Shown: positions 3,591 through 48,473 of the stretch, in pieces
How positions within the stretch are numbered: position 1 is the first letter of the stretch
Layout of the letters: every line of letters begins with the position of its first letter
Source of the DNA: Nemertoderma westbladi
Lineage: Eukaryota; Animalia; Xenacoelomorpha
Reading direction: 5' to 3'
DNA length: 53,806 bases
NCBI GenBank assembly: GCA_032718475.1
Contig: JAUCBJ010008970.1
Location: 1 to 53,806 of the forward strand
Made by a program: the position numbers and the translations under genes
The notes under the pieces: generated by a model
The model's input: the letters and a program-made list of their open reading frames with translations, nothing else
Databases searched by the model: none
Told to the model about the DNA's origin: nothing

Positions 3591-3699
3591 GGAAACAGTA
3601 TTCGACTACGCGTATGCATTCGCGTATGTGAAATCGCTCAATGTAATGTATAGATACGTGGATACGTACGGCATACGTATGAGCCTGGCATGAGCCTCG

Positions 3700-23240: not shown

Positions 23241-23975
23241 CTACTAATAATACTACTAGTAAAATAGCGCAGCCACAACTCCCTATCACCCATGACTTTC
23301 GCGAGATAATCCGCATCTTCGAGTCCAGTGTCCTTTAAGAGGCGTCTCAAGAAAGTCATGGGCTGTTCACCTTGCTTATTCACTCCATGAGGCCAAAGCA
23401 CAAGATTGTGCACTGCTTGGTCCTCAATGCGAGAGCAATGTCCTGCAAAGCGGAGGCGGCTCCGTCCAAGTGTAAAGCTAGGAACGGAGAACATAATCAA
23501 CCACAATTACGAATAAGAATGGTGCAAGTGTGTCACCCTGAAGGACTCACCATAAGGATTCGAATGGATCTGTGTCACTATCATCCGTAGACACAAATAT
23601 GGAGGAACCATCGTACAGTGTTCTGATAGCTGCAATAATTTCCTCAGGAATCCCATATGCTGCCAGTAAGCCGAACATACGTGGTCGGGTCGGGAGGAGA
23701 CTGAGTCGAAGGCTTTAAAGGAGTCAACAACGGTAACAGCCAGATGCCTGTCTTTCTTTTTTGGTAACTCTTCGATTATCCTTCTAAGTGCCAAAATGGG
23801 CTCCATGGCCCCACGACCTTTACGGAACCCATTCTGATTTCTACGGAGCAGTCTCGCAATGGGATCCCTGATGCGATTTAATAGAATTCTATTGTATAGC
23901 TTTGCAGCAATCGAGATTAATGAGATTTCACGAAAAGATTCATAGGTTGTTAGGTTGCGCTTCTTTGGGAATGGG
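23241..23975 (-). mobile_element. Decayed RTE-clade LINE (same family as 5556-5822) in an MCT intron
   Basis: ISLISIAAKLYNRILLNRI, QNGFRKGR, KAFDSV, RLRFAGHC, DRELW; TAG/TAT tail at 23241-23259; internal deletion. Confidence 0.85.
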
Positions 23976-24348
23976 TCCAACTTATTTGTATTCATTTTTT
24001 GAGGGACTCTCTTTTGTCCTATACATGTCCAGAATAATAATGGGGCAAGAAATGGATAGACGGAAGTGCCGAAAGCACAGTACCTCAGAAAGGCGCAGAA
24101 TGATTACCGGCTCAAACAATGTCCTTAACATTGTTAAGGACATTTGCGGCACAGGATCCAGTGAAGGCTGTATCTAGGTCCCTAAACCTGAACAGGGAGG
24201 TTTGAACAGGAGGTTTGTGAATACAGTATCTTACTATGTAGGTGACCAATAATGTTCGTTTCAATTATAGACATGCCAACGTTAAAACCAGCTGAGTAAT
24301 GCGTAACATTTCAAGTATTATCGACTTAATCAAATTAAATAATATTAC

Positions 24349-25545: not shown

Positions 25546-25622
25546 GTCAATGTTCTCAATTATATTTTTTATTCGGTTATATGTAGGCCTGTCATATGGA
25601 ACTCATGGTTATTAATACCCTG

Positions 25623-26812
25623 TGTTCGCGCTTTTGAAGACCTTTAGCAGTTTAACCTGCCAAAATTTATATGTCTTTTAGTTAATTAAAACACCTTTAG
25701 CATACGACAATATTTAATGCTAATACGCAAAACATTAGCCGAAGTCAGCCCATGCGCGATCATTCACCCGATGGATCTACACCCGGGAGGCTGAATTCGG
25801 ATGCTTAAATTTTATTATTGCAGTGTAAGGTTGCAGCGTAAACTTACTGTATTATTCGATAGATCGTTAATAATTAATTCCTGACAGATATTATTGGCTT
25901 TCGGGAAATATTAACAGTTCCTTTAGGACGTGGCGCTCTATCTATTTAAACAGAACTAGGACTTATACTAAACGCAACGATACTGCTTATGATTAAAGTA
26001 TAAAGCGTATTCTTTAGGAAATACTTTGTTACCAATCACAATCATGCACACTATTCTGCCGACCGTCAGTATATTTGATCACACATAAAGAGAGCAGTAA
26101 TTGACTCATGTAGGGTCTGCTAAATAACATTAGATTCAATACACACCACATTAATATAAATCGCAATTGTTATGTATAGCCGGTCTCTCTAACCTGTAGT
26201 GTATCAAGAAAATTGGGAATTTTGGGTGATTTATCCGTATTCTCCAAAGAGCAATATTTCCATCAACAAATAGGTACAATTAATAACTGACGGTAAATAA
26301 CAGTACAAACAATATGATTAATGCAGTTAAATTAAGTGAGTTAGTGAGTTCGTTCGGTAACAGTTTATACTTTCGATAATTTAAGCAGTTTACTAGAGTT
26401 CTTCCCAAAAAGCCGGTGTTATGGCGAAAAATGGGAACATAACAACAGAATCATATAAAATCATATGACTACTACTACTATACGAGTATACCAAAAACTC
26501 TTATTCCACGAAGCCCCGTTCAACACAGAGGATGAGCATAGAGATAGGAAATTCAGTTCAGTAGCGCTGGGATAGGTCGAAATCAACGCCTACGCAAATT
26601 CTATTGGCCGACACGAACAGCAAGGCTAAGGCAACCTCTCTAAGCTAGTTGGCCGATTAAACTGAGCCCAGATATCTCCGTACAGCACATCAGCCAATAA
26701 GCTGGTAGCTTGCACTATTTTAGTTATAAATCCCTTTGAGAGTATTCTAGCGACTGGGGGGGAACTGGCCAACAAAGGCAAACGTATCAGTTATCCCACA
26801 AAAGCTTTTACA
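25623..26812 (-). repeat. 3' LTR (1190 bp)
   Basis: TGTTCGCG...GCTTTTACA on the + strand; near-identical to 43110-44319. Confidence 0.97.
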
Positions 26813-26822
26813 CCGCTCCCAG
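26813..26822 (-). other. Polypurine tract
   Basis: Sense sequence CTGGGAGCGG directly precedes the TGTA start of the 3' LTR, as expected for a short BEL-type PPT. Confidence 0.75.
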
Positions 26823-26890: not shown

Positions 26891-29800
26891 TTAGTCTTTC
26901 TTGCGCGGACGGCGTTTACGCAGTTTTTTAAAGCTAGCAAGAGTCCTTTTCTCTTTGGGGCGAGCCACTTTACGAGGAGGGCTATAACTCCTGGGTGAAG
27001 GGTGCAATATGATTGCATCAGAAGGGATGGGATTGTGATCGGTATATCCGCCGGTCGAAGTACCGGGTTGATTGACATCAACGTCCGGGGAGAGGGGTCT
27101 AACGGCTTTGAGAGCTCGTTTCAAGACAGCCGCTCTTACGGGTCCTTTACGAGTGGTCTGAACGAGGGCCGTGGGTGGACCATAGGCAGTTAGAAACTTC
27201 CTTGGTTTAATGGTTCTTTCCAACTCGCGTTCGCGGGCTCTGTACTCGTAAGGCCGTCGATATACTTCTTGTAACTCGGGGTGTGAGTTGACAAATAAGT
27301 CTCCATAGGCCGGATCTTGACGGATAAAGTTTATTAAGTTATACGAATTGATGTCACTCGGATTAATGCTCCTGAGGAATTTGCGTACATATTTGGTTGA
27401 AATACATTCTCCAACGCGCTTCAATAGTTCATAACTTGATAGGCGCGATTTCTGCTCGACGGAGGCAAACAAATAAGGATGGAACGCATAAACTCCTTCG
27501 TAAGCGCGTCCAGGATAATAGCGATGGCGTGAATCACAATGTAAATCAGCGTTCGCTTCCCAAGCTCTGATATAACGTAGTACAATCATTTCATCTACGC
27601 TCTCTAAATCATGGTTAAAGGGACAATCAAAGCTGGCGTGTCCTTTTAGTTGACAATGATGGCATTGAGTCATAAATTGGGGGCAGACAGCAAAAATGTG
27701 CAAATTATTAAGCCGACAATATGCACAATAGATTTCCATCGACGGTTGCTCGTGGAAATAGGAACAGAGATCGTTGGTATCCATAGACGTAATATGGTCT
27801 CTCGATGCACACAGCCGACAACGTTGTCGTGAAACATAATTGGCATGGCGATAATCATACGCAGTAAGACACTGGGGACCTTGATACCATTCCAATATGT
27901 AGTCGCTATCGCTACTCCGAGACGTGGGGGGCTGAATCTCTTCAGATTCTAAACATATGGGTTCGTCTTCCCCTTGTATAGTTGAGGTAGGCGTGGCTGT
28001 CTCCTCAAGTGGACCTACCGTCTGAATTTCCACGACAGAATAACCGGTGGGGATCCGAGGTCTTTGGATAACCGAGGAGTGCAGGTTTATTACACAAATG
28101 TCTCTGAAAATAGCGAATCCAGCGCTATCTAACTTCTCCGCAGCCGAGTCTCTTAAGCTGAGCTTGGTCAAAGCGCGGTCTTTGAATTGGCTATCCACGT
28201 TGCGAAACGGGGTTAAAAACCGTCGGAAACATTCAAAGCGGATGAATTTATTATGTTCATCTAGCTTAGCGAGTTTGGTCCCAAGGATTAATGGATGGGC
28301 GCGTATAGTGCGACTGCACACATCGGCTAGCCAACCGGAAAGTGCGGTGTTTTCGAAGATCGTGTAGATAGCTAAGGAGGGACGGAGTGGAACACTCATG
28401 AAGCTATACACGGCGCCAGGTGCGGTCAACGGTCCGTCAAAGTATAATCGAGAATAATGGTCTCCGTATACTTGTTGATAGTTGATGGGATTTCCGACCT
28501 TGAAATTCCACCCGTATTCCTGAAAGGCAAGATGTCCGATGGAAGTTCGTTGCACCTTTGTAATGTTGCTAGACACATTAGCATACATGGTGCGAAAGAA
28601 ACCTCGGCCTTCGGCCCAAGGAGCTATCAGCTGAGTATCCACGAAAGGATAGGGGATATTCTCCATATTCCGAAAGTCGTTTTGGAGATCTCCGTAAACA
28701 GCTGAGCCGATTTTAATGATTCTTTCGTTGAATAACATCTCGAGAACGGGCTGGGGTAACATCGATCCATCGATACCCATGGCCGGCTTGCGTTCGGTGT
28801 CAATGACGTAACGCTGCGCGAGTTCGAATTGTCCATGTCGGAGATTCTTTTGCGTTTCGGTGAGAGTTTCGAAGGAATAATCGATCACGTCGGAACACGC
28901 TCGCGTAAACACGTGAGTGGAGCCAGCTAATCCGCGTATGTGTATCATGCGCGTAGTTCCTAATTCTCCGATTGGAACGCTACCTTCGTTATCGTAAGTA
29001 ACAACGCCATACATCTCAATGATATTAAGAGTTTCATTCCACTCTTTGGTGGCGTTCTCGAGGGTCATCCCTACCGGATGCCACAAGGTGGCGCATTGAT
29101 TAGCGTCAGGGAGATCACTATACTTCATATATCGAGTGGTATACGTCTCCACATTTCCATATCTTTGGATTTTCTCCTCCTCGAATAATACGTCTAGATT
29201 CCAATGGACTAATCGAGTTTTAATAAATCCATCGAGATTATAAGGAGGTTCTGTATCCTTCTCTATTCGAGAAACGTTATATGGTTTTCGAAATGAGTTT
29301 ACCTTTACTAATTGATCCAGATGTTTTTGCAATTGTTCGAGTTCGACAATGTCCAGAGGATTTATTAGTGGTAGAAACTTTAAATCATGCGTCGGATCTT
29401 CTGGTTTTACCATATAATATTGAGTCAGATTAACGTAATAAGGGTGATCTTTAATTCCATAAAAAGAGTTCTGTAAAGGTCTAGCGCGTATGTTGACATC
29501 GTGTACCATACGACGGACAAGATCCGCTCGATTGTCCGGAGGTTCAACGAGTATACCGTCAACTCGAGCGGCCTCGATTGGCGGACGCTGTAACATAGGA
29601 GCGTCAGCGATAAGATTTTGCGATCTGATGCTGATATCAACCGGTTGGGGTTGTATCTTTGCGAAAAGTTTGTCTCCGAAATGCGGAACCATCGAGGGAT
29701 GACGGACGGTTTTAGAGTAGAGATCGGTTATGAGTATCTGAGTTTCGGGTTGGGCTAAAGCGGCTTCTTCTCTCTCATCCATTTCCGTATGCCTCTCCTC

Positions 29801-31144
29801 CAGTTGATTCTCCTCCGCCTGTTTCTGCAAGCGTTCTTCCAGAAACTCCTGTAGAGAATACGTACGTCCAAGCTCGATGTCCTCTTCGAGGTTTTGGATT
29901 TCTCTATCAAACTGCGGCAAGGCTAGCTCTTTCACCGATTGGACCTGCTGCTGTAATTTACGTTTCTCTAGAAAATCCTGGGTTCCCTTTCCGATTTTCT
30001 GTCGGATGGCGTCTAGAGCGTTTCTGATGACACTCTCCTCGACTTCCGTGGCAGGTTGTATCGGAGTTAATCCTGGCCGGTTGTAAGGATTAAATGGCGA
30101 TGTTAGATGTCCGCGTCCCAATCCGGTTAAATAGGATGGTCGAATATCCAACGAACCTACCGCCGGAACACCACCGATTAACTGCTCGGGTAACACCAAA
30201 TCCTTGAACAGTGAGTATAATTCGGGAGGATCAGTGATACTGTTAGGATCAAGAGTTTGAGGTCTCACGGGGAAATGGGGAGGTCTGACCGAGTATTCCG
30301 GAACTCTGATCATGGGTTTATTTAGCGATCGTTTTAGACGGGCGATCGTAGGTGATACGTCGAACAGGTTTCGCTCGAAACTCCCGTAAGTATAACGCGT
30401 AAAACTGTGTTTAGCACAACGTCTCCGCGGATGTTTATGTCTTTCCGTTTGCTGGTTAGGTCTAGGACATGAGTCACAATAATACCAAAGACGTACGTCC
30501 TGCAGAGGAAACGCGGGTGATCGTTCTCCAGTTTTGCAATACTCTTCCATTTGTTCAAAGCTGTCCGGGACAACAGGCAGTGGACGATCTGCGGTAAGAT
30601 ACATCATGGTGAAATAGAGTCGTTTGAGTTCTACCATGGGATCGTGATGTATACCTTGAGGATATCGAGTCTCTAGGTTCTGTTGACTGGCAATATTGAG
30701 ATAGGTTTCCCGCAAAAATTCCAAGTAGTCGTTGAAGTTGATGCGCTTATCGGGTTCTTCAACGTTTTCTCTGTCGAGTAGGTTGCGAATAGAGTTCTCG
30801 TGTTCTATTCTCGGTTTATCGTTACGATTCCGCTGGGCATGATATTTAAATAAAACCATTTCCCTTTCGGTGTCTACATCATCAGTATCATGTAAATCGG
30901 TAGGATGGCCGGTAGTTAAGAAGTCCATATACGTACCATTACGATTCGTATAGCGAGTGGTGAATTTTCTATAGTCCGCTTCACGCGTAAGTTGTTCCTG
31001 GGACATCGGCGGTTCGATATAACGACCATCGTCCTCCGTAATAGTCGGATCGGCTTCACCGCGTATCAAGCTATCCACAAACGCTTGTAAAGGTAGAGTA
31101 TATCGCTCTCTAATACCAAGGTCATCTTCTATCAATTCCGTCAT
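26891..31144 (-). CDS. Retrotransposon accessory ORF2 (1417 aa): putative DEDDy 3'-5' exonuclease plus CCHC zinc knuckles
   Basis: Exo I-like VTYD718NE720G; Exo II-like LPQPVLEMLFNERIIKIGSAVYGD819L followed by FVDTQ and SIGHLA; Exo III-like PLRPSLAIY927TIFE931. Knuckles CAYC-x5-H-x4-C (from aa 1140) and CHHC-x4-H-x4-C (from aa 1161); basic NLS-like C-terminus; no obvious signal peptide or TM anchor. The ORF itself is certain; the exonuclease call is by eye. Confidence 0.75.
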   Translation of the reverse strand: MTELIEDDLGIRERYTLPLQAFVDSLIRGEADPTITEDDGRYIEPPMSQEQLTREADYRKFTTRYTNRNGTYMDFLTTGHPTDLHDTDDVDTEREMVLFKYHAQRNRNDKPRIEHENSIRNLLDRENVEEPDKRINFNDYLEFLRETYLNIASQQNLETRYPQGIHHDPMVELKRLYFTMMYLTADRPLPVVPDSFEQMEEYCKTGERSPAFPLQDVRLWYYCDSCPRPNQQTERHKHPRRRCAKHSFTRYTYGSFERNLFDVSPTIARLKRSLNKPMIRVPEYSVRPPHFPVRPQTLDPNSITDPPELYSLFKDLVLPEQLIGGVPAVGSLDIRPSYLTGLGRGHLTSPFNPYNRPGLTPIQPATEVEESVIRNALDAIRQKIGKGTQDFLEKRKLQQQVQSVKELALPQFDREIQNLEEDIELGRTYSLQEFLEERLQKQAEENQLEERHTEMDEREEAALAQPETQILITDLYSKTVRHPSMVPHFGDKLFAKIQPQPVDISIRSQNLIADAPMLQRPPIEAARVDGILVEPPDNRADLVRRMVHDVNIRARPLQNSFYGIKDHPYYVNLTQYYMVKPEDPTHDLKFLPLINPLDIVELEQLQKHLDQLVKVNSFRKPYNVSRIEKDTEPPYNLDGFIKTRLVHWNLDVLFEEEKIQRYGNVETYTTRYMKYSDLPDANQCATLWHPVGMTLENATKEWNETLNIIEMYGVVTYDNEGSVPIGELGTTRMIHIRGLAGSTHVFTRACSDVIDYSFETLTETQKNLRHGQFELAQRYVIDTERKPAMGIDGSMLPQPVLEMLFNERIIKIGSAVYGDLQNDFRNMENIPYPFVDTQLIAPWAEGRGFFRTMYANVSSNITKVQRTSIGHLAFQEYGWNFKVGNPINYQQVYGDHYSRLYFDGPLTAPGAVYSFMSVPLRPSLAIYTIFENTALSGWLADVCSRTIRAHPLILGTKLAKLDEHNKFIRFECFRRFLTPFRNVDSQFKDRALTKLSLRDSAAEKLDSAGFAIFRDICVINLHSSVIQRPRIPTGYSVVEIQTVGPLEETATPTSTIQGEDEPICLESEEIQPPTSRSSDSDYILEWYQGPQCLTAYDYRHANYVSRQRCRLCASRDHITSMDTNDLCSYFHEQPSMEIYCAYCRLNNLHIFAVCPQFMTQCHHCQLKGHASFDCPFNHDLESVDEMIVLRYIRAWEANADLHCDSRHRYYPGRAYEGVYAFHPYLFASVEQKSRLSSYELLKRVGECISTKYVRKFLRSINPSDINSYNLINFIRQDPAYGDLFVNSHPELQEVYRRPYEYRARERELERTIKPRKFLTAYGPPTALVQTTRKGPVRAAVLKRALKAVRPLSPDVDVNQPGTSTGGYTDHNPIPSDAIILHPSPRSYSPPRKVARPKEKRTLASFKKLRKRRPRKKD

Positions 31145-31187
31145 ATCTGCTATCTGAGTTTATTAATATCAATATGAGTTAATATTT

Positions 31188-31331
31188 TAGGCAAGCGGGC
31201 GTCGCTGCCTACTAGGCTTTTGCCCCCGGACAGTGGGTTTCTCAGCGCCGATGTACCGCTGTCGCAGTGTTTACGCCAACATGTAGCAACAGCACGACAA
31301 CGATAACCGGCACAAGTCCCACCACTGTCCG
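31188..31331 (-). other. Predicted structured RNA element immediately upstream of ORF2
   Basis: 105-nt irregular hairpin (31227-31331) with stems completed by G-U pairs on the sense strand, followed by hairpin TAGGCAGCG...CGCTTGCCTA (31188-31211). Confidence 0.65.
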
Positions 31332-31959
31332 TCCCAAAGGCTTGAATCCACTTGAGGTTATCTCGGTAGAGTTAGGGCTACTTTACAATTGCGATTAGCT
31401 ACTGTAAACACACTTTAGTAGTAACATTCACCTACAAACGCACAAATTCCATACAATCATTAATTACTGCACACATGCATGCCATTTGTCCGTTAGTCAG
31501 TGTCTTCCAGAATGTCACGTTCTTACTATGTATCCTTGGATACTAATAGTGCGCTATGTACTCTTATGCTACGCAATGGGGCAAGCTTTTTATTGTTCCT
31601 TTAACTTGCTTCTAATTCTAGCGTGGGTGTTGCCATGGTGACATTATGGAAAACTAGCGGTAGAATTAGGGCAATTCTCATGTATACAGATCTGGGATGT
31701 TATTTAATAGTAATTCTTTAATTGTCAATATTCTCTTTATGCCTGATTTTATAAATTTTATCGGCTATTGACTATATATTGGAGATTCTCGCACTCTAAT
31801 ACACTCAATATGAATCTCCGCTCCCATGATCTATTAATTACTGGAATTTTGGGAATGTTATAAATTGCACAAAATGACAATTTATGAAATTCATTCGAAT
31901 ATGAATTTAAATTTATTCCCGTGAATTTTATTATTTGATGTTAAAATTGACACAATTTG

Positions 31960-32245
31960 ATTCCAGAGCAGGTCTGGGGACATAGGATCCTTAATTCTAT
32001 GAAATTTGTCTTTTAAGAGTATCGGTAAGTGCTACGATATCTTAATCGACTAGAATTGTTAACGGATCTGAATTTTACAGATTTTAATAAATATTAAATT
32101 AATATTTAGGATGGGCACCGATTTATTCCAGAACTTGTCTGGGGACGTTAACCACTGATTCTAGAATTTGTCTTTCAAGTATATCGGTGGGTGCCACGAT
32201 ATCTTAATCGACTAGAATTACAGATGGTCAAAAGTTTAACAGATT
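31960..32245 (-). repeat. Direct repeat (about 166-bp period) of a hairpin module in the pol-ORF2 spacer
   Basis: Both copies share TTCCAGA...GTCTGGGGAC...AATTTGTCTTT...TATCGGT..GTGC.ACGATATCTTAATCGACTAGAATT. Confidence 0.85.
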
Positions 32246-32764
32246 TATTTGCGATTTACGCTACTGTTAGAGGGACATCACGCTACTATATGTGTTATTT
32301 GTTATAAGGTAGAAGAGCAATATCGAACGAAGCAATGTCAGTGTGAAGAGGCAAGTCGTTTCCAAGGTCTACCCAGAGCTTGGTTTAGCCGAGACACGAG
32401 GATCTGAACTTTGCATTCCTAATACTCTGCCTACCAATAATACTTAAATATAGTAGTGGCTTTATTGTACTTTTAAGAAGTACTGACATGTCATCTTACT
32501 GTAGTCTCGCATTTATAATATAATACGGACAGTAAGGAAAGAGAAAAATAATTATTTCTTGCCGTCGCACTAAATATATTATAAGTAATTAAATACGTAA
32601 TAAACACTAATATATTACACTAATTTACTAAATATTCTAAAAATAACCTTTTACTAAATAAAATTAAATAAAAACGATTATAATAACGTACATAATAACA
32701 TTTGCATATAAAAATGTAATAAAAACAGATAAAATAACATAGACATACACCCACTCCAGACGTA

Positions 32765-35700
32765 CTACGTTGAAGAGCCCCTAGATGTTTGAGGTATTAG
32801 GGAGGTGGTCGTGGGAAGAGTGTCTTGTCTTCCATAGTTTCCGGAGAGTTCCCTGTCTCTTTCCAGCAAACATAAACGACCAACTGGGCGATTGAGTTGT
32901 TGCGTCTCAAAGATTATCCCGGGTTTCTTGAAGTTACGCCGCATTACGACGAGTTCTACTGAGCGCACTAGACCATCCTCCGAGATGTGCGTCTCGATGA
33001 TACGACCGATCTGCCACCGTCTACGTGGGAGGTCCGGATCTACAATAAGGACCATGTCTCCGGCGCTGACATTTTCCTGCTGCGCAAACCACTTAGTTCG
33101 AAGTTGTAGCGTGGGCAGATAATGTTTCTCAAAATGGTCAGCGAAACGACGGGATAGCAACTGCATAAGCTGCCAAGTTCGACGACAGTATTCATCTCCA
33201 TCGGCAATCTCGGATTGTGGGAGCATGGCTACAGGTTTCTTAAGTAGGAAGTGCGCGGGTGTTAGCGCTTCCAGGGAGTCGATACTCGATGAGACTGGCA
33301 TAAGCGGTCTCTCGTTAAGATAGGCAGCGATTTCTTCCATTAACGTCCGTAGAAGTTCGTCGGTGAGATATGCGCGGCACGGCACTATAAAGTGAAATGC
33401 GGTCTTGACACTTCGAATTAATCTCTCCCAACTTCCTCCCCACCAAGGGGCGTCGGCGGCGTTAAAGGTCCAGCTAGACGCCGTTATCCGTAGCTGGTCA
33501 TCCACCTGTCTTTGATTCCAGTCCTTTACGTAAGCCTGAATTTCGTTGTTGGCACCAATGAAGTTCGTTCCCTTATCGGATCTCATCGTATTGCTAGTGC
33601 CGAAACGAGCGATCTGTCGTCGTAGACATAAGACGAAGCTGTTAGTAGATAGATCGTTCACCATATCGAGATGGATAGCTCTACAAGTCATGCAGACAAA
33701 GATTACGCACCATCTCTTGATTATAGTTCTAGCACGATATACTTCAATAGGGCCAAATAAATCCACACCAGTATTAGTAAAGGGTGGTTCATAAAAGCTT
33801 ACTCGTTCCCTAGGTAATTCTGCCTCTCGCTGTGTTAAAGGCCTACTGAATACTTTCCTACAAGGTATGCAGTTCCTAAGAACTTGATTCAGAGCTCTAC
33901 GTGGTTTATGAAAATAATAGCGGGTTCGAATCTCGCTAAGAACTCGTTCTCTACCAGCATGATACAATTTACTGTGAACGTCTACAATCATCTTGATTTG
34001 TACTTCAAGATTACTAATGAGTATAGGGAATTTAGTATCAAAGGACAATGGGGCGTTCGTAAGCCTTCCTCCAACACGTATTAACCCATCTATCATTGTG
34101 CTAGAGAAGCGATCCCTTAAGCGCATCTGCGGATTTCTTAATAGCAGAAAATACCTATCGGAATCCTCATAGCATTGCAATAGTCTCAGTAGCTGCTTAT
34201 TAGTTTCTTCATGCTCCTGGTAGCTGATCTTCTCCTTTAGAAACCGGTCTGATATCTTGTACTTAGGTAGATCTTTAATAACATGAACTTGCGCAGATGT
34301 TACCGGAGCAGGATCACTAGTGGTCTTCTTCCTGGAGTAATGATGGTGAAAACATCTCTTTAAGTATGTGATAGCTTTACAGAGACGATTCCAGGAACTG
34401 TAATGATGCAGTGCTCTCTGCAGCAGGGGTGAGATTCCTTGCGAGACGTCTGGTATCTCAGATTTCCAATCTCTATCTCTAATTTCCACAACAGATTTGT
34501 TTGTGGCGAGGGATTGTGGATCCGAAGTATCGTTCTCGGCAGTATGTAATACAGATAGGTCGATTGTCGGTTTAAATAACTTCGATTTACTTGTCCGAAT
34601 TTTGGGTTTGACTTTCTCCGCTCCCTTGGCTTGTCTAATCTCAGCCGTAGTAAGGTGAGGAGGCCATTCATCCTCTTCCTTGCTCAAGAAGTCGGGTCCA
34701 CCCAACCAATCAGGGGTATCTATCAGTTCCTGTGGAGTTGCTCCTCTGGAGGCGATGTCAGCTGGGTTAATCGTACCAGGGCAATGTCTCCATTGATCTA
34801 TCGTTGTGCGACTAAGAATAATGGCCACTCTGTTAGTAACAAAGATGCTGAACTGACAGACTTCATTCGTTATATATTCCAATACAAGTAAAGCGTCGGT
34901 CCAATAAACAATTTTCTCCAGTGGATAATCGATCTGTTCTGTTACATTCCGGCCGATAGCTGTAGCATATAATGCTGCTTTTAACTCCGCCCGAGGAACC
35001 TTAAGCTTGTTGTTAATCAATGCCTTAGAGGTAACCAAGGCAACTTTGATTCCATCCGGAGTTTCGACTCGCAGATATGCTACTATACCGATCCCCATAT
35101 CGCTGGCATCTCCAAATACATGGAGTTGATAGGAATACGTAGGGAGAACATGACCAAAATATGAACGGGAAATTATAAAGTTCTCGATGGCAGGTAGCGA
35201 ATCCTCCCATTTCATCCATTTCTTTAATAGTTCTCCCTTGAGTGGATCGTCCCACGAGTGGTTTTCCAGCCACATTTGTTGTACTAAACTCCGAGCAATC
35301 AATATAACTGGGCTAATAAATCCCAAGGGATCGAAATAAGTGCTCAGAATACTTAAACAAATCCGTTTGGTCCGAACTGGATTATCTCGCTGTTTTAACT
35401 GAAAAAACAGGATATCTCTTTCTGTGTCCCACTTCAAGCCAAGCGTCTTGGTTTCCGGAAGATCATCATGTATTAAGTCGAGATCTTTTGACCCCCGGTC
35501 TTCTACAGATATTGCTTCCAGAAACTCACGGCAGTTGCTGGTGAACTTCGTCAATCGAAATCCACCTCTTTTCAAACACTCAACCGTTCCTTTCGCGACA
35601 TCAATGGCTTCCTTTACTGATGGAAGGGACTTTAAGTTGTCGTCCATGTATATGTCTCGTTTGATGTTATCTATCACCTCTTTGGAGAAGGCATCCCGGT

Positions 35701-38700
35701 TGTCATCCGCAGTGGTACGGACCACTGAGCAGGCGTTTGAAGGGCTTGATATAATCCCAAAAGCCTGGATGGTCATCCAGTACTCTACCGGTTTCTGGTT
35801 GAGATCTCCTTCAGGCCACCACAGGAATCTTAGGCTGTCTCTATCACGATCCAACGCCTTGACTTGTAGGAACATTCCTTCTATATCGGAGGCGAACGCG
35901 ATGGAATATTGTCTTAATCTCAACAGTATCCCCAACAAAGATTGGAGCAAGTTGGGTCCTGGTAACAACTCGGAATTAAGGGATTGGCCCATATATAGGG
36001 CGGAGCCATCAAATACAACCCGTACTTCATGGGGTTTACCGGGTTTGGGAACATAATGATGTGTTAGATAATAAGTCCTTTCAGTTATTGGAGTTCCTTC
36101 CGGTACTCGCTCCGCATATCCCTTTGTGATAAATTTCTTCAACTGAGTTTGGTACATTTCCTTAGCTGAAGCGTTTGCCGTAAGACGTCGATGTAATTGA
36201 TTGATTCTTTTCTCAGCCAAGGGTCTGTTATTTATAAATCTGGGTTCACGTTTTCGGAAGGGTAGTCCGATTTCATATCTACCTTGATCTTTTAAAAAAC
36301 GTGTGGTTGTTTCCTGGATTTGCTTGGCTCTTTCTTCTTCTATTGACAGGGCTTTGTCGTATGAATTGGGTTCTACCAATTCTTGGGTAAAGAATCGTAT
36401 GGCGAGTTCGTCCCGAGTTCTAGCGTTGTAGCGCTCTACCTCGTCATTAAGTTCGTCATTATAAATAATGGATTCCGTTGGGCAAATCAGTTGACATAGG
36501 TTCGTTTGGTTTTTCCAAGTTTGGTTTTCGGTAAGTAGGTCAAATGTGTTCTCTTCTTCGAAGAGTTGGTAGATGTCGTCATTATCCGAGGAGTATGGTG
36601 TTCCCTCAGTTAGTTCGTCCACCTCGCTGCTTTCCTCTTCCCAATCGCTTACCTGATATATTTGTTCGTGGGGCATTCTCTCTTCTAGAGTTCTACGGGA
36701 AGGGCCAGTAAAGTACCAACCTACTCTAGTTCTTACCGCATAAGTTTGCAGTGGCTGTGGTTGAGCAGGCCGTTTCTCTAATGTTTCGAGCGCCTCATGC
36801 GCGTTTTGGCCGATAAGTATTTGCACTCCAGGATAGTCTGTCTGGAATCGAGGTATCTTAAGATGTTGGACGCTCTCATCCTCGTCCCAATTGTAAAGGT
36901 CTGCTTGGGTAGTAGCGAAGTTCCTTATAGCCACCATTTTTACTGACCTTACACCTTGTGTTCCTAACTTATCCTGGGGGGTGGACAACACACCTACATA
37001 GTAATCTGCCGTCAGGGTAGATTTCCAAACCTGCATAATTCCTGACATGTTCAATTTAGTCCAGAACTTGGGTTGTCCAGCAAAGATATCTTCGGCTAGT
37101 TCTTGATCGATGAAGGTTCCTGTGCTGCCTGAGTCAAGTAGGGCGTTCACTATGTAGCTTTTGTTAATACCGTGAACTCTTACCTGAACTACAGGAAATT
37201 CTCTGATTCCTACGTTGGAAGTTGGAGCTTTCCAAGATGATTGTTTGGTAAAAATAGTAGGGGGAAACTCCTCGTTGATGTCCTTTTCGTAAGTAAGTGC
37301 TCGATACACCGTGGTGTTTATTAGATAACAGGATTCATTGGCGTCGGAGAATTCGTCAGTATAGAATCCTTCCATCTCAGACTCCTGATCAGTGTCGTTT
37401 ACATCACTGAATTGGACATGTAGTTCGGACTCACTTACCTGACTCGGCTTGTCCCGTTCGAACTCACTATGTAACAAGATGTGATGTTTCGCACCACACT
37501 TTTCACACTTTATGTCGGAGTAACAGGTTCGCCGTTGGTGTCCTGGTCTGAGGCAATTATAGCATAACCGCTTGTCCCACACAACTGTACGTCTGTCTAC
37601 AAGGGATTTCTTTAGAAATTCCGCACACGCACTCAAACGGTGAGTCCCGTCGCACAGCGCACAGTTAGGTTTTATGTTACTTACTTTCACTTGGGTAGTC
37701 TGATGCACTCTCGTTCTTTCTTCGGGCTTTCTTCCGCGCATTCTGCTAGGAGACTGAGGAGGGGTCTTAGTAACTTGTTCTCTCCTATTATTGGTTTGAG
37801 CTTTGTATTTACTTACGTCCTTGGAGGTTTTGTCAACATAATACGATCGATCTGTATCTTTCCCGCTGTCCTCTTCTTGGGAAGCTTGGCTTTCGCCGTC
37901 GTCAGTGTAACACACCGGTGTTACTCTTCTCCTAGAAGTGGGTTTCTCACTTACCTTATTTTCCGATGTTTTCTCTCTGGACTGCTTGATAAGTTGTAGT
38001 TTGACTTCACCATCTAAGAAAGACATGAGATCAGCCATAGTAGGACTTCGTCGTTGTTGTTCATTCATGTACAACACTTTCTTGTCCCAGCGTGTACATA
38101 CTCCACCCTTTGGTAAAGTAGAGACTACGGCTCCAATAACCATGGAACTCTGGTATTCGTGCGACTTACCTAACCAGTCCAGTTGTCTACAGATCTCTTG
38201 AATTTCATCGGAAAACTCTATAATCCCACTACTAAGGAAGTGTCGGGGGGCTACTAATTTTGCATACAAATACTTAGCTATGTTATCCTTATTACCATAC
38301 CTGATGTTTAATGTATCCCAAACTTGTCTTAATCCTTCTGGATGTCCAATAAACTTTAACGCCATTAACTTGGGAGGTCCTTCCAAACACTTGATGAGGA
38401 ATCTAAGTTTCTCTCCGTTAGATAGTACAGAGTTCTGTATGCTATCTTTGTAATATTCGTTGAAAGGTAACCATTTCATTTCGTCTCCATTGAATTTGAC
38501 GATCTCTCCCACTTTGACCGCTTGGCGGGCTTCTGTTCTAGCCATCTGACGCGTAAAGCTTTCTTGGGCCATCGTGTTATTTAATATCGAATTATCGGTA
38601 TATAAATTTCTCGGATCATTATCAGGTCTATAGGGAATATCATTAATAACAGGTCTATAATCACCCTTAATAGGGTTTGTTATAGGAGTTTCAACTTCAC

Positions 38701-40927
38701 TAGCAGTATAGATGCGTGTAGGCTCCACACCTTGCGCATGTAGTACTTCAGACCTAACAGGTTGACACAATGTTACAGGGGGTATTGGTATGCCTTTTTG
38801 TATATTGACTAATTTGTCGCGTTCTAGCGCGATACTTTGCTGCACTTCTTGCAACTCTGCTCTACCTTCCCTCACTGTTCCCTTAAGTTGGTGGACAGTC
38901 TCCTGCATCTGTCCCAGCAGGAGATTCATCCCCCGCCGTCCCTCTTCCACCCACTCAACCGCCGAAGCGGGAGTCGCCAACATAGTAGCGGGCTGACGCG
39001 GGACGACGGGAGACAAATTATTGATTTCTCTCTCTGCTATCTGGACAGGGGTATTTGCTTGGACTGTTCCACCGGGTACAGGCAGTGTAGTACTATGTAA
39101 AGGGAATTTAGAGTTAAGCTCTGGAAGTGTAGGGGTCTCTAGCACAGAAGTGACTTTGGGAACAACAGGCCTAATTATTTCAGGTTCATCGACTATAGTA
39201 GGGAGTCTTTTGACCTGGATAAATTGTTCTATGGGTTCTGCACTACCTAAGTCTGTGCTAGTTAGCTGTCTTTTAACAGCTGGGGGCAAATCAGGCAATT
39301 TGCGACGGTAATATGTTTTTCTACGCCTACTTAGATGAGATCTATTTCCTCCGCCTTCAGGATCGGTAGTATCGCCTTCCTCCGAGGATGTGTATCCCTG
39401 GCGCTTGGGAGTAGATTTTCTCATCATCTGCATTTGATTAGCAGTAAACTGTTTATTTATACTGTCTTGTGTCTCTTGCAGATTTTCCAACTCCAGTTGG
39501 GTAGTCTGCTCAGATGCTCTCCTTTCTGCTTCTGCCACTGCCTTTGCTGCTTTTCTTTCTGCTTCTGCATCTGCTGCCGCTGCCTTTCTTTCTGCTTCTG
39601 CTTCTGCCGCAGCCACCGCCTTTGCTGCTTTTCTTTCTGCTTCTGCATCTGCCATAGCCGCCGCCTTTGCTGCTTTTCTTTCTGCTTCTGCATCTGCCAT
39701 AGCCGCCGCCTTTGCTGCTTTTCTTTCTGCTTCTGCATCTGCCATAGCCGCCGCCTTTTGTTCCTCTATCCTTCTTTTCTTTATTTGTTCTTCTCGGACT
39801 CTAGTGAGACGGAGTTTTTCATCACATTCAGCTTGGTTTGCAGCTAGCATTTCGGCATCGATTGAGTCCAATACAAGCTTGGTTCCTTCACTATTAGGGG
39901 AAAGTCCAGACAGCCGTCTCCTCAACTCTTCGTCTCCTAGGAATCGCTGATAGTCGGACAAATAAATGTCGATAGCGTCTCTAGTTCGCGGTTTCTCGGC
40001 GGCCTCTTCGCTTTCCGCTTGAGGAAGGGTAACATCAGTTGGTTCTTCATAAGTTGATCTCTCAGCCAGCTGGGATTTCCACTGGGCCGTTTCCTGTACT
40101 TTGAGATCTACCCGATGTAGCCAAGTTTTTACAGCAACCTGCAGCGACGTGTCCTGTCTTCTTTTGGAAGTTTCCTCAAAGGCTGAGAGGATTAGTCGTA
40201 TGCGTAGGGTTCTTTCCCGTATTTGATATAGCAACTCTTCCTGCTCTTGAGGTCCGTGAGGTTGTCGAAACAGTTGTTCTTCCAATCGATCCAAAGATCC
40301 GAAGAATCCCTGCACATATCCTGCTGCCGACCTCTTCCAAACAGCTGGATCCATTGTATCTTTAGCCACTCCCATCCTGTGTATATCTTCCCAAGTAGCC
40401 TCGGACAGATCCAACGGAAGTCCGAGTCCGGGAAAGTTCCATTGTGATTCAACAATAGATATCAATTCTTCCCTGGCGTATCCCGCGTAATTATCTTGGG
40501 TCGCTCGCTTATTCTTCGCCCAGTCGGCTTGATGTTCCTCCACCGCAATGAATATAGTAGTTAGCACTGCAGCAGGAAGAGTAAGAAGGGGGTCCGAGTA
40601 GACTGTATCAGCCATCTGCACTCCATGTTCGGGAGTCAACTCTACAGTATCCGAACTGCTGGAGCTATCGGGTCGCTGGGAAGTAGGTTCTTGACCAAGA
40701 TGTTGCTGCGATAGGACAACTGCCTCTTGGTCCCGTTTTACCTGTGCCCGAGTGCCTATGATGGACCTATGGTGGACTAGCCTAGGGTCTGATACTACTG
40801 GAGGGATGACCTTTTTTACAGTAGGAGGTGAGCCGAACTCCTTTCTTATTCGCTCCACACTCCTATCTGAATCACAGATAGTTGTATCGATCAGACTGTC
40901 TGACAGGTTTTGCTGAGTGTCAGACAT
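32765..40927 (-). CDS. BEL/Pao gag-pol polyprotein (2720 aa, intact)
   Basis: Gag core (KFNGDEMKWLPF...EKLRFLIKCLEG); three knuckles (CALCDGTH...C, CYNCLRPGH...C, CEKCGAKHHILLH); protease ALLDSGS; RT (RVVFDGS, DIEGMFLQV, YMDD); RNase H (FGDAS, PRAEL, WTDA, NPADIASRG); integrase (HHCC, GVDLFGP, SDKGTNF, GGSWERL); BEL-type C-terminus (YLPTLQLRTKW...DGLVRSV...RPVGRLCLL). Confidence 0.98.
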   Translation of the reverse strand: MSDTQQNLSDSLIDTTICDSDRSVERIRKEFGSPPTVKKVIPPVVSDPRLVHHRSIIGTRAQVKRDQEAVVLSQQHLGQEPTSQRPDSSSSSDTVELTPEHGVQMADTVYSDPLLTLPAAVLTTIFIAVEEHQADWAKNKRATQDNYAGYAREELISIVESQWNFPGLGLPLDLSEATWEDIHRMGVAKDTMDPAVWKRSAAGYVQGFFGSLDRLEEQLFRQPHGPQEQEELLYQIRERTLRIRLILSAFEETSKRRQDTSLQVAVKTWLHRVDLKVQETAQWKSQLAERSTYEEPTDVTLPQAESEEAAEKPRTRDAIDIYLSDYQRFLGDEELRRRLSGLSPNSEGTKLVLDSIDAEMLAANQAECDEKLRLTRVREEQIKKRRIEEQKAAAMADAEAERKAAKAAAMADAEAERKAAKAAAMADAEAERKAAKAVAAAEAEAERKAAAADAEAERKAAKAVAEAERRASEQTTQLELENLQETQDSINKQFTANQMQMMRKSTPKRQGYTSSEEGDTTDPEGGGNRSHLSRRRKTYYRRKLPDLPPAVKRQLTSTDLGSAEPIEQFIQVKRLPTIVDEPEIIRPVVPKVTSVLETPTLPELNSKFPLHSTTLPVPGGTVQANTPVQIAEREINNLSPVVPRQPATMLATPASAVEWVEEGRRGMNLLLGQMQETVHQLKGTVREGRAELQEVQQSIALERDKLVNIQKGIPIPPVTLCQPVRSEVLHAQGVEPTRIYTASEVETPITNPIKGDYRPVINDIPYRPDNDPRNLYTDNSILNNTMAQESFTRQMARTEARQAVKVGEIVKFNGDEMKWLPFNEYYKDSIQNSVLSNGEKLRFLIKCLEGPPKLMALKFIGHPEGLRQVWDTLNIRYGNKDNIAKYLYAKLVAPRHFLSSGIIEFSDEIQEICRQLDWLGKSHEYQSSMVIGAVVSTLPKGGVCTRWDKKVLYMNEQQRRSPTMADLMSFLDGEVKLQLIKQSREKTSENKVSEKPTSRRRVTPVCYTDDGESQASQEEDSGKDTDRSYYVDKTSKDVSKYKAQTNNRREQVTKTPPQSPSRMRGRKPEERTRVHQTTQVKVSNIKPNCALCDGTHRLSACAEFLKKSLVDRRTVVWDKRLCYNCLRPGHQRRTCYSDIKCEKCGAKHHILLHSEFERDKPSQVSESELHVQFSDVNDTDQESEMEGFYTDEFSDANESCYLINTTVYRALTYEKDINEEFPPTIFTKQSSWKAPTSNVGIREFPVVQVRVHGINKSYIVNALLDSGSTGTFIDQELAEDIFAGQPKFWTKLNMSGIMQVWKSTLTADYYVGVLSTPQDKLGTQGVRSVKMVAIRNFATTQADLYNWDEDESVQHLKIPRFQTDYPGVQILIGQNAHEALETLEKRPAQPQPLQTYAVRTRVGWYFTGPSRRTLEERMPHEQIYQVSDWEEESSEVDELTEGTPYSSDNDDIYQLFEEENTFDLLTENQTWKNQTNLCQLICPTESIIYNDELNDEVERYNARTRDELAIRFFTQELVEPNSYDKALSIEEERAKQIQETTTRFLKDQGRYEIGLPFRKREPRFINNRPLAEKRINQLHRRLTANASAKEMYQTQLKKFITKGYAERVPEGTPITERTYYLTHHYVPKPGKPHEVRVVFDGSALYMGQSLNSELLPGPNLLQSLLGILLRLRQYSIAFASDIEGMFLQVKALDRDRDSLRFLWWPEGDLNQKPVEYWMTIQAFGIISSPSNACSVVRTTADDNRDAFSKEVIDNIKRDIYMDDNLKSLPSVKEAIDVAKGTVECLKRGGFRLTKFTSNCREFLEAISVEDRGSKDLDLIHDDLPETKTLGLKWDTERDILFFQLKQRDNPVRTKRICLSILSTYFDPLGFISPVILIARSLVQQMWLENHSWDDPLKGELLKKWMKWEDSLPAIENFIISRSYFGHVLPTYSYQLHVFGDASDMGIGIVAYLRVETPDGIKVALVTSKALINNKLKVPRAELKAALYATAIGRNVTEQIDYPLEKIVYWTDALLVLEYITNEVCQFSIFVTNRVAIILSRTTIDQWRHCPGTINPADIASRGATPQELIDTPDWLGGPDFLSKEEDEWPPHLTTAEIRQAKGAEKVKPKIRTSKSKLFKPTIDLSVLHTAENDTSDPQSLATNKSVVEIRDRDWKSEIPDVSQGISPLLQRALHHYSSWNRLCKAITYLKRCFHHHYSRKKTTSDPAPVTSAQVHVIKDLPKYKISDRFLKEKISYQEHEETNKQLLRLLQCYEDSDRYFLLLRNPQMRLRDRFSSTMIDGLIRVGGRLTNAPLSFDTKFPILISNLEVQIKMIVDVHSKLYHAGRERVLSEIRTRYYFHKPRRALNQVLRNCIPCRKVFSRPLTQREAELPRERVSFYEPPFTNTGVDLFGPIEVYRARTIIKRWCVIFVCMTCRAIHLDMVNDLSTNSFVLCLRRQIARFGTSNTMRSDKGTNFIGANNEIQAYVKDWNQRQVDDQLRITASSWTFNAADAPWWGGSWERLIRSVKTAFHFIVPCRAYLTDELLRTLMEEIAAYLNERPLMPVSSSIDSLEALTPAHFLLKKPVAMLPQSEIADGDEYCRRTWQLMQLLSRRFADHFEKHYLPTLQLRTKWFAQQENVSAGDMVLIVDPDLPRRRWQIGRIIETHISEDGLVRSVELVVMRRNFKKPGIIFETQQLNRPVGRLCLLERDRELSGNYGRQDTLPTTTSLIPQTSRGSST
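39520..39760 (-). repeat. In-frame 45-bp coding tandem repeat (AAAMADAEAERKAAK) in the Gag N-terminal extension
   Basis: Three near-perfect units plus about three degenerate units, all preserving the reading frame. Confidence 0.9.
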
Positions 40928-41054
40928 GTTTAGTTATACAGTTGAATGTCTACTACTATAGTTTCAGTTAAAGCAAGTCTAGTAATTCAGTATGACCGCA
41001 AGCCTAGCGATTTATTACCGGTACCGTTACTCGGTGTAACGTGATATATATACA

Positions 41055-41310
41055 ATATATTAGAATACCGGTATGCTTATAATATATAAGTATTATTACA
41101 GACTAGATTTGTCACAGAGTACCGGTATATAATTTTAGCACAAATATATATATATATATATAGTAGGCCTATAATGAATACCGGTATACAGCTTACACTT
41201 ATAGCATATAAGTATAATTATGAACTAGAATTAATTACAGAGTACCGGTATGATTTCAGCTCAAATTTATAGAAATAAATATAATAAGCCTATAGTAAGT
41301 ACCGGTATGT
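41055..41310. repeat. Degenerate tandem duplication (about 115-125 bp) punctuated by TACCGGTA in the 5' leader
   Basis: TACCGGTA at 41066, 41120, 41179, 41243 and 41300 with repeated flanks (ATATAAGTAT, ACTAGA, ACAGAGTACCGGTAT). Confidence 0.7.
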
Positions 41311-42294
41311 CAATTATTTTTAGAATAATTGAATTTCTGAATATTTTAAGGTTACTTAGTTACTTTAACTTACTTTATTACCGTTGTTTAAGCAGTAGTC
41401 CAACTGGTAGTGAGACCTAGTTGTTGTATGACAGGCCTACTATTTATAAATCGTTTGATTTGATTTATAATATTTATATACCCGTTATATGGGTTTTTGT
41501 CAATATTTGAAATAAATGTTATTATTTCTGGGGGAGTCACTACACAGAAGCTGTGCGCTCTCAGTGAAGTGCTATTTATTTGACACTAAAACTGATAATT
41601 CTAATTTACCTAAGTTACTTAATACTACAAATTACTTACGATACGGGTGAGATTAATTCTCTAATTAAACACAACAAAATATTACGTACGAAATTTTTAG
41701 GGTAATTTTACAGGAAGTCTACAAACCAGTCTAACAAAGGGTTAGATTTCTGGTTATTACAATGGACAGGGTACTACGGTATTTAAATAATAAGTAGTAG
41801 TAAATATACTGTACTGTCCAGATAGGAAAATACCACCACCTGACGACCTATAACCGTATCGCTATAGGTACTACGTTATGTATCACGGATTGTTCCTACC
41901 CAGAAGCTAATAGAGCTAACGAATGTGCCTATCAACCACTTTACAACACAAATATACTGCCTACACTAATTACTTCGGAAAGCACTGTACACTAAACCCC
42001 AAATTAGGTACAAGTACCGGTATAACAAATAATCAGTAGTTAAATATACTTGAACAGTTAAAAGAACCACGGCATCTGCTGGAGTGACCGAAGCACAAAA
42101 TCTCCAGTCTTTACCTACGCCGAGCAGCCCTGATGTAGTACCGGGGTTAGTTTAACTATAACGGTATGTATAACAAGCACAATTACTGTAGGAATAAACT
42201 TGGGGACATGAATGTTGCGAATAATCGCATAAACTCTGAATAATAAATATTACGCTACCCGTACAGAATACTCAAACAAAATACAAACTAAACG

Positions 42295-42757
42295 CTGGCA
42301 GACTACTATCAAGCCTAAACAAACTACAGTATGTGCAGATTCTGAAACTGTTAGTTAGTATGCGTTCTAGCACGGTAGTACGACTTATTCTTTAAGAGGG
42401 GATTGACCTTACCGCATATGGCTGCCCCAACTTACTAACGGCACTTTATCAGACCAACTCTACACACGCAGCAATCCCTTCAGGCCTAAGAATAGCTAGA
42501 CAACAATCTAGCCTACAAAATATTTGAGTAATAACTATTACGGTACCTGAACAGACCACACAAACAAACACAGACTAAAACACTGGCAGACTACGATCAA
42601 GCCTAAATAAACTACAGTATATGCAGACTCTGAAACTGTTAGTTAGTATGCGTTCTAACACGGTAGTACGACTTATTCTTTAAGAGGGGATTGACCTTAC
42701 CGCATATGGCTGCCCCAACTTACTAACGGCACTTTATCAGACAAACTCTACACACGC
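42295..42757. repeat. Direct repeat (175-bp core, 288-bp period) in the 5' leader
   Basis: 42295-42469 and 42583-42757 are near-identical. Confidence 0.95.
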
Positions 42758-43096
42758 CGTAATCTCTCCAAACTCAACAACAGTCAGACAGCAGTTCAGC
42801 CTACAATTATTCGAACAATCTGAGCAGACTTACACGTCTTCAGCTCAATATTAACTTACTAGGAAATAAAACCAACAGAAATAAGTAAGCTCCAAAAGAA
42901 ACAAGGGGTGTACAGTCCCTAATCTCTTAAACAGCCTACCGGTATACAATAATCAAAATCGAATAATACCAAATGTACTTGTACAGCAGTACCGGTACCG
43001 GTGATGACAGTTAGGCCTACTGACCTGCAGAAGTACCGGTTCAGTTTTACCAGTCACTACGGTATCTTGCAACCTTATTGCCTACTGCAATAAGAT

Positions 43097-43109
43097 TATA
43101 AACTGTTAC
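43097..43109 (-). other. Primer-binding-site position: non-tRNA type, complementary to the element's own LTR
   Basis: Sense GTAACAGTTTATA abuts the 5' LTR; there is no TGG. It is the exact complement of sense TATAAACTGTTAC at 43876-43864 (also 26369-26357). Confidence 0.7.
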
Positions 43110-44319
43110 TGTTCGCGCTTTTGAAGACCTTTAGCAGTTTAACCTGCCAAAATTTATATGCCTTTTAGTTAATTAAAACACCTTTAGCATACGACAACAA
43201 TTTATGCTAATACACAAAACATTAGCCGAAGTCAGCCCATGCGCGATCATTCACCCGATGGATCTACACCCGGGAGGCTGAATTCGGATGCTTAAATTTT
43301 ATTATTGCAGTGTAAGGTTGCAGCGTAAACTTACTGTATTATTCGATAGATCGTTGATAATTAATTCCTGACAGATATTATTGGCTTTCGGGAAATATTA
43401 ACAGTTCCTTTAGGACGTGGCGCTCTATCTATTTAAACAGAACTAAGACTTATACTAAAACGCAACGATACCGCTTATGATTAAAGTATAAAGCGTATTC
43501 TTTAGGAAATACTTTGTTACCAATCACAATCATACACACTATTCTGCCGACCGTCAGTATATTTGATCACACATAAAGAGAGCAGCAATTGACTCATGTA
43601 GGGTCTGCTAAATAACATTAGATTCAATACACACCACATTAATATAAATCGCAATTGTTATGTATAGCCGGTCTCTCTAACCTGTAGTGTATCAAGAAAA
43701 TTGGGAAATTTGGGTGATTTATCCGTATTATCCAAAGAACAATATTTCCATCAACAAATAGGTACAATTAATAACTGACGGTAAATAACAGTACAAACAA
43801 TATAATTAATAGTGAATTAAGATTGATTAGTTAAGTAAGTGAGTAGTTAGTTAGTTCGATTCGGTAACAGTTTATACTTTCGATAATTTAAGCAGTTTTA
43901 CTAGAGTTCTTCCCAAAAGCCGGTGTTATGGCGAAAAATGGGAACATAACAACAGAATCATATAAAATCATATGACTACTACCACTATACGAGTATACCA
44001 AAAACTCTTATTCCACGAAGCCCCGTTCAACACAGAGGATGAGCATAGAGATAGGAAATTCAGTTCAGTAACGCTGGGATAGGTCGAAATCAACGCCTAC
44101 GCAAATTCTATTGGCCGACACGAACAGCAAGGCTAAGGCAACCTCTCTAAGCTAGTTGGCCGATTAAACTGAGCCCAGATATCTCCGTACAGCACATCAG
44201 CCAATAAGCTGGTAGCTTGCACTATTTTAGTTATAAATCCCTTTGAGAGTATTCTAGCGACTGGGGGGGAACTGGCCAGCAAAGGCAAATGTATCAGTTA
44301 TCCCACAAAAGCTTTTACA
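43110..44319 (-). repeat. 5' LTR (1210 bp)
   Basis: Direct repeat of 25623-26812 with roughly 20 small differences plus one divergent AT-rich block at about 43800-43862. Confidence 0.97.
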
Positions 44320-48461: not shown

Positions 48462-48473
48462 TTTATCGTTATA

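Follow-up and report, generated by a model that had tools for sequence, protein, structure and literature searches.

Organization of the retrotransposon

The window analysed here comprises positions 1 to 53,806 of contig JAUCBJ010008970.1 of Nemertoderma westbladi (assembly GCA_032718475.1). On its minus strand, from 44319 to 25623, lies an 18,697-bp long terminal repeat (LTR) retrotransposon of the BEL/Pao type, in which a second large open reading frame (ORF), ORF2, occupies the env position. ORF2 is predicted to encode a divergent DEDDy 3'-5' exonuclease domain followed by three zinc knuckles, and this domain is conserved among sibling copies. The element consists of the following parts.

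43110..44319, minus strand: 5' LTR, 1210 bp, TGT...ACA
43864..43876, minus strand: candidate self-primer, LTR nt 444-456; the same 13 nt recur at 26357-26369 in the 3' LTR
43097..43109, minus strand: position of the primer-binding site (PBS); no TGG start, complementary to the element's own LTR
40928..43096, minus strand: 5' leader, 2.2 kb, with a 288-bp internal duplication (42237-42806)
32765..40927, minus strand: gag-pol, 2720 aa in a single frame, with Gag, protease (PR), reverse transcriptase (RT), RNase H (RH) and integrase (IN)
31145..32764, minus strand: spacer between gag-pol and ORF2, 1620 bp, AT-rich, non-coding
26891..31144, minus strand: ORF2, accessory protein at the env position, 1417 aa, uninterrupted
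26813..26821, minus strand: short purine-rich tract adjoining the 3' LTR
25623..26812, minus strand: 3' LTR, 1190 bp, beginning TGT and ending ACA

Between the two LTRs there are 7 gaps and, over 1187 aligned bases, 21 mismatches (1.8%). Three Cys/His knuckles were found in Gag and a YMDD motif in RT, and the BEL/Pao domains DUF1759, Peptidase_A17, Integrase_H2C2 and DUF5641 each scored above the curated cut-off in gag-pol; PF05380 is the RNase H of BEL/Pao (PMC3985635, cited from an excerpt, as are the papers below other than the profile issued by ICTV, the international committee for virus taxonomy). With TG...CA LTRs around gag-pol, the domain order PR-RT-RH-IN, these diagnostic Pfam domains, and a plan of LTR, gag-pol, third ORF, polypurine tract (PPT) and LTR, the element agrees with Belpaoviridae. 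It is a BEL/Pao element by the sequence of its enzyme domains, and the missing tRNA primer site is a departure from the ICTV profile. The N-terminal region of Gag is very long, with about 800 aa ahead of DUF1759, and contains Ala/Glu/Lys-rich 33-bp repeats (39492-39796, minus strand).

No target-site duplication (TSD) was found in the element flanks (25607-25622 versus 44320-44335), and the 5' side borders on tandemly arranged units of 1.3-1.8 kb (44320-49740). Because a related solo LTR in the window does have a 5-bp TSD, the copy described here may have arisen by recombination between two insertions, or may reflect a join made in assembly.

ORF2 is a non-env accessory gene

The regions of ORF2, all on the minus strand, are listed below.

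29075..31144, minus strand: aa 1-690, Pro-rich at 270-370, Glu/Gln-rich at 385-465, Cys/His cluster at 223-247
28310..29056, minus strand: aa ~697-945, predicted DEDDy 3'-5' exonuclease domain, divergent in sequence
28985-28993, minus strand: ExoI, D718/E720, predicted catalytic residues
28688-28690, minus strand: ExoII, D819, predicted catalytic residue
28364-28366 and 28352-28354, minus strand: ExoIII, Y927 and E931, predicted catalytic residues
27623..27820, minus strand: aa 1109-1174, with three zinc-knuckle-like Cys/His motifs that the homologue P0003 shares
26894..26992, minus strand: basic C-terminal tail, with a possible nuclear localization signal (NLS)-like or RNA-binding role

A first-pass annotation of this DNA had described ORF2 as an uninterrupted 1417-aa frame between pol and the PPT, without an obvious signal peptide or transmembrane (TM) segment, and this was confirmed (31144..26891). 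The frame has the same sense as gag-pol and stops 78 bp short of the 3' LTR; two AG dinucleotides, putative splice acceptors, lie immediately 5' of its ATG, and no second copy of it was found within the window. There is no hydrophobic segment, the highest 19-residue Kyte-Doolittle mean being 1.33, and the N-terminus is acidic. For these reasons ORF2 is, by its sequence, not an env gene, and the searches for a signal peptide, a TM anchor, viral fusogen homology or an env family match gave none.

The residues D718, E720, D819, Y927 and E931 were all present at the positions named in the first-pass annotation. The three Cys/His clusters noted there begin at C1109, C1140 and C1161, and the last is a canonical CX2CX4HX4C knuckle. 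A zf-CCHC_3 match covers aa 1091-1200 with E=0.0014, under the curated cut-off. An origin of these knuckles as a recent copy of the Gag knuckles was ruled out (best E=0.28). The tail, which had been called NLS-like, is indeed basic, and the NLS part of that description stays a suggestion. For aa 1-690, the family-profile and homologue searches found no family or homologue, in keeping with the earlier remark that the N-terminal ~700 aa resemble nothing recognised.

ORF2 carries a predicted variant DEDDy domain

Five weak lines of sequence evidence are concordant for a DEDDy domain. In NCBIfam two families were matched, both of them RNase D, with E=0.001 on the domain and far under the cut-off. 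The sole match in a tblastn search of 72,556 plasmid records was also an RNase D (E=4). In the ESM atlas, PF01612 was present in 25 of 30 matches (0.92). A profile was built from 40 bacterial PF01612 (DEDDy) domains, and it scored ORF2 aa 798-844 at 4.5 bits, while the best of 2001 shuffled or reversed controls reached 2.3; with hhalign, ORF2 scored 30.4 against the DEDDy profile and the best of 100 shuffles 20.1. Scores with RNase D/WRN profiles are thus weak, above controls and under curated cut-offs.

The fifth line is a homologue. A search of 1.84 billion representatives with ORF2 aa 51-1250 gave a single one, P0003 (E=4.5e-6), which has 648 aa and is 30% identical to ORF2 over aa 775-942. 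P0003 has the exonuclease domain, the three knuckles and the same Glu in ExoIII, and its resemblance to ORF2 continues past the knuckles. Against the DEDDy profile it aligned over ExoI-III, with a probability of 86% and 149 columns. It is an unnamed singleton protein on a 9449-bp ENA contig and is without the long N-terminus. Its top match in the ESM atlas was a euglenozoan cluster with PF01612 and zf-CCHC (0.86), which is a lead only.

The individual motifs were located in an alignment of 42 rows, 40 of which are known DEDDy proteins. D718, E720 and Y927 are invariant in it and D819 is nearly so. D819, the ExoII Asp, falls in the best-matching segment. With an ungapped ExoI profile, the D718 segment ranked first among the 19-mers of the whole ORF2, and 6 of 300 shuffles equalled it. 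ExoIII at Y927xxxE931 is settled, on sequence grounds, by P0003 alone; both proteins have YxxxE in place of the canonical YxxxD, as the first-pass annotation had read it for ORF2. The domain also carries inserts near aa 745-780 and 850-920. ORF2 is therefore classed, from its sequence, as a variant and not a canonical DEDDy member.

Several results weigh against this assignment. Pfam and PDB sequence searches gave no exonuclease match in ORF2, the matches to hidden Markov models span only aa ~798-848, and the feature overlap in the ESM atlas (154-155 of 256) is under the usual family level. ExoI was placed on D718/E720 in two of six local MAFFT runs; in the remaining four it fell near aa 755-759, a site that lacks the Asp, and the pairwise match between P0003 and ORF2 over ExoI is not significant. 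A bacterial ExoIII profile gave preference over Y927 to Y913, a Tyr without an acidic residue at +4. AlphaFold (AF2) on the single sequence gave no usable model (pLDDT 29.7). With the 42-row alignment, AF2 reached pLDDT 60.7 and pTM 0.64, with aa ~737-776 unresolved. That model matched RNase D with Z 13.8 (rmsd 3.4, 172 aligned), and likewise Nibbler (Z 13.1), EXD1 (Z 12.2), Egalitarian (Z 11.3), WRN and TbRND; because 40 of the 42 alignment rows are known DEDDy proteins, these fold matches are circular, and the model indicates compatibility with a DEDDy fold only. With Glu as the last of these residues, catalysis may be reduced or lost, and a literature search found no report on the effect of an ExoIII Asp-to-Glu change.

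Other searches added no relative. Sub-profiles of the WRN-like, RNase D-like and PolA rows taken singly did no better than shuffles, in a comparison with two of the 40 rows in the wrong orientation. Word-indexed searches gave no homologue of ORF2 among 3449 and 442 candidates, with the classes of 563-778, <176 and >2480 aa left out, and the same kind of search with P0003 gave, among 2110 candidates, only P0003 itself. Locus scans of viral and metagenome contigs showed no relative of ORF2 or P0003. Matches to nine Lak phage records (E about 10), and to glutamine synthetase and ferritin, were judged to be noise. Taken together, the weak searches and P0003 bear out the earlier proposal of a DnaQ-like, DEDDy domain as non-env cargo: the domain very probably has the DEDDy fold, and catalytic activity is somewhat more probable than its absence.

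Sibling copies and selection

Contigs from four studies run from the LTR across ORF2 and the spacer and on into pol, with 30 of 30 bins covered in all four runs. Run X4, which may be RNA, covers the spacer as well. In what follows, the listed changes are the best-supported differences and not independent events, and their counts do not imply invariance of the catalytic codons. No indel within ORF2 appeared among the 12 listed of 108; the changes listed for ORF2 number 19, with 11 of them synonymous. For the nuclease domain, in three studies, 32 of 40 listed changes (40 of 98) were synonymous, versus 22-29% expected, and no indel reached a 20% share; pN/pS was about 0.07-0.10. Half of the replacements in the domain sit in aa 857-860, an insert. 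The N-terminus is more variable, with synonymous changes making up 5 of the 11 listed in aa 8-348 (Fisher p=0.05 against 32 of 40). These sequence comparisons indicate that full-length ORF2 copies are under strong purifying selection on the nuclease domain, as had been supposed.

Large internal deletions of ORF2 were also observed in sibling copies, in runs X1, X3 and X5.

27972-30782: ORF2 deletion
27289-29178: ORF2 deletion
27049-29403: ORF2 deletion

Three of the 15 listed joints (15 of 45) remove most of the nuclease or of ORF2, and the two deletions with a known junction are both out of frame. One deletion class had a depth of 2918 in run X5, compared with 300-780 for the listed nuclease-bearing contigs; no other contig class listed over ORF2 was as deep in that run, although depth is not copy number. 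Both the joints and this depth speak against a gene that every copy needs. The existence of ORF2-deleted derivatives, one of them at high depth, suggests that ORF2 is dispensable in cis. Decay of ORF2 in siblings, which the first-pass annotation had regarded as evidence against its proposal, is thus seen as large frameshifting deletions in some copies, whereas the full-length copies are under selection.

A candidate self-priming signature

After the 5' LTR, no PBS that starts with TGG, and so no tRNA primer site of the 18-nt kind given in the ICTV profile, was found. Instead, LTR nt 444-456 have their exact reverse complement in the first 13 nt past the 5' LTR. A 13-nt match recurred in 3 of 20,000 LTR shuffles, and among 2150 leader positions the PBS position is the only 13-nt complement to the LTR. 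The predicted helix depends on the start of the RNA: the pair probabilities were 0.52-1.0 for a start at nt 444, 0.21-0.81 for nt 420 and 0 for nt 380. The LTR-PBS complementarity is a candidate self-priming signature at the sequence level. A PBS position complementary to the own LTR is also the arrangement of Tf1/sushi, which are gypsy-group elements not known to carry an exonuclease ORF.

Possible roles of the ORF2 protein

Our tentative proposal is that ORF2 is an intact, selected accessory gene for a 3'-5' exoribonuclease with the predicted DEDDy fold and three zinc knuckles, which trims the 3' ends of element RNA; we hold this possible, at somewhat under even chances. The protein would be made from its own subgenomic message, and the knuckles would keep single-stranded RNA in place for the nuclease, like those of TbRND. 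It would act in trans, and therefore deleted copies would still be mobile. For bdelloid ORFs, 3'-end processing of retroelement RNA was suggested by Rodriguez et al. (PMC5408684).

A more specific version connects the nuclease with priming. The 3' end of the primer would need to be freed from downstream RNA; a 3'-5' exonuclease that halts at a duplex could trim the element RNA back until it meets the self-primer helix and leave the 3'-OH that starts minus-strand DNA. Alternatively, the general job could be the clean-up of tailed genomic RNA ends. The link between the self-primer helix and the ORF2 nuclease is one that we infer. Tf1 uses RNase H for the primer cut, so that a 3' trimmer is not generally required, which counts against this step. 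In full, the reading is that a BEL/Pao lineage which primes itself without tRNA supplies its own enzyme for primer maturation, a D-E-D-E(y) exonuclease with zinc knuckles that resects to the LTR-PBS helix; this is unlikely. If true, it would mean a retroelement nuclease family that includes P0003, and a priming route that differs both from tRNA priming and from the RNase H cut of Tf1.

Two other functions have to be weighed. ORF2 could over-trim or destroy host small RNAs or their precursors, in the manner of Nibbler or MUT-7, and so shield the family in trans. The alignment-guided model, which is biased, matches Nibbler nearly as well as RNase D; trans action agrees with the ORF2-deleted copies; the family is abundant, with thousands of contig pieces on the stretch and some depths in the thousands (again not copy number); and the basic tail and the large N-terminus might direct the protein to a host complex. 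Such an anti-silencing role is nevertheless rather unlikely, as the bdelloid DEDDy ORF has no clear link to copy number in the excerpt of PMC5408684, and strong purifying selection on the domain is not what an arms race would leave, though variation is greater in the N-terminus. The protein could instead be a scaffold for RNA binding, catalytically weak or dead in the manner of EXD1 or Egalitarian, whose fold and knuckles grip genomic RNA for nuclear export, transport or packaging. The ExoIII Glu, the two long inserts and the basic tail fit this, EXD1 and Egalitarian are among the fold matches, EXD1 and Maelstrom have been noted as inactive derivatives (PMC5408684), and CERV does such a job for Cer1 (PMC10309623). 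Dead domains, however, usually lose the metal-ligand residues and the Tyr, and in ORF2 and P0003 the four metal-ligand positions are acidic and the Tyr is kept at 30% identity; a single D-to-E replacement likewise occurs in the bdelloid ORFs, which were considered possibly active (PMC5408684). A scaffold role is held to be fairly improbable.

It is very unlikely that the DEDDy resemblance is partial or spurious, with the ExoII segment alone real, or that ORF2 is a passenger or a host-serving gene. The short extent of the profile matches, the failure of Pfam and PDB searches and the persistence of ORF2-deleted copies would fit such a case. Against it, P0003 links ORF2 to full-length DEDDy profiles, selection acts across the entire nuclease domain, and ORF2 is joined to pol and the LTR in all bins and runs. 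An RNA-trimming nuclease is kept as the working proposal.

Other features of the window

A full solo LTR of a related family lies at 7617-8741 (plus strand); it is 59% identical over 1085 aligned bases, with the same termini and a 5-bp TSD. It is separated by 207 bp from a downstream ADRM1/Rpn13 ORF without introns (8949-10386, plus strand, 369 aa), for which it could serve as promoter, and the last codons of this ORF are repeated downstream as 41-bp tandem units. The diverged LTR as a retrocopy vehicle for ADRM1 was ruled out, the 5-bp duplication identifying it as a solo LTR. The window also contains an intronless MFS sugar transporter ORF (12879-14360, minus strand) and a NAC-domain ORF (18072-18551, minus strand), as well as RVT_1 reverse-transcriptase fragments, probably non-LTR, and a 21-bp minisatellite (2563-4903, 23507-24103, 16578-17251).

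Comparison with known systems

The closest precedents by description are the DEDDy ORF3 of the bdelloid Ty3/gypsy elements Juno and Vesta and of the Athena/Terminon retroelements (Rodriguez et al. 2017, PMC5408684; PMC6431247), which confirms the precedent named in the first-pass annotation for Ty3/Gypsy and Penelope-like elements. As in ORF2, these are separate sense ORFs past pol at the env position, RNase D-like, without TM segment and with one D-to-E change (PMC5408684). No bdelloid DEDDy ORF was among the ORF2 matches in the search of 1.84 billion representatives, and the likeness is otherwise by description. They differ in that their hosts are gypsy or Penelope-like elements and not BEL/Pao, that their motif is given as DEED versus D-E-D-E(y) in ORF2, and that they have neither the three C-terminal knuckles nor the 690-aa N-terminus (PMC5408684, excerpt). 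Purifying selection is clear for ORF2, whereas the bdelloid neutrality test, in the same excerpt, covered env and GDSL ORFs only. The earlier view that the nuclease was captured from a host was not supported, no host donor gene being found; Rodriguez et al. favour exchange of such ORFs among retroelements (PMC5408684).

In env-bearing BEL/Pao elements, such as roo, Tas, Cer13, Atlas and the mosquito chuvirus-like ones, the third ORF is a glycoprotein (PMC8742986; PMC13524379), unlike in the present element. TbRND, the RNase D of Trypanosoma brucei, has a DEDD exonuclease followed by several CCHC knuckles, a combination termed very unusual, and its knuckles bind substrate (PMC7797062). It is a cellular mitochondrial enzyme with four adjacent knuckles, whereas ORF2 has three, ~165 aa downstream; no significant sequence match between TbRND and ORF2 was found, and the likeness is likely one of analogy. 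A DEDDy exonuclease also occurs in the Dada DNA transposons of Laccaria and Ectocarpus; unlike that of ORF2, it sits inside a DDE transposase and has the four canonical DEDD residues (PMC3706591).

No BEL/Pao exonuclease ORF was found in the literature, with Repbase, subscription journals and the Terminon paper outside the scope, and the excerpts of PMC6431247, PMC6338049, PMC12440569 and PMC12451622 contain no such case. What appears to be new here is the DEDDy cargo in BEL/Pao; in gypsy and Penelope-like elements it is already known. Enzymatic non-env cargo thereby reaches a third retroelement lineage. Belpaoviridae are given as 4.2-10 kb with an 18-nt tRNA PBS in the ICTV profile (PMC8742986), and the present element, at 18.7 kb and without such a site, is nearly twice the family size. 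It is also over the length filter of the main survey, in which de la Chaux and Wagner discarded elements >15 kb in one merging step (PMC3118150), so similar elements may be systematically missed. For ORF2, unlike the bdelloid cases, there is evidence that the nuclease domain is under selection, and this domain, soluble and open to test, gives access to the function of DEDDy ORFs in retroelements, with the self-primer helix as a concrete candidate substrate.

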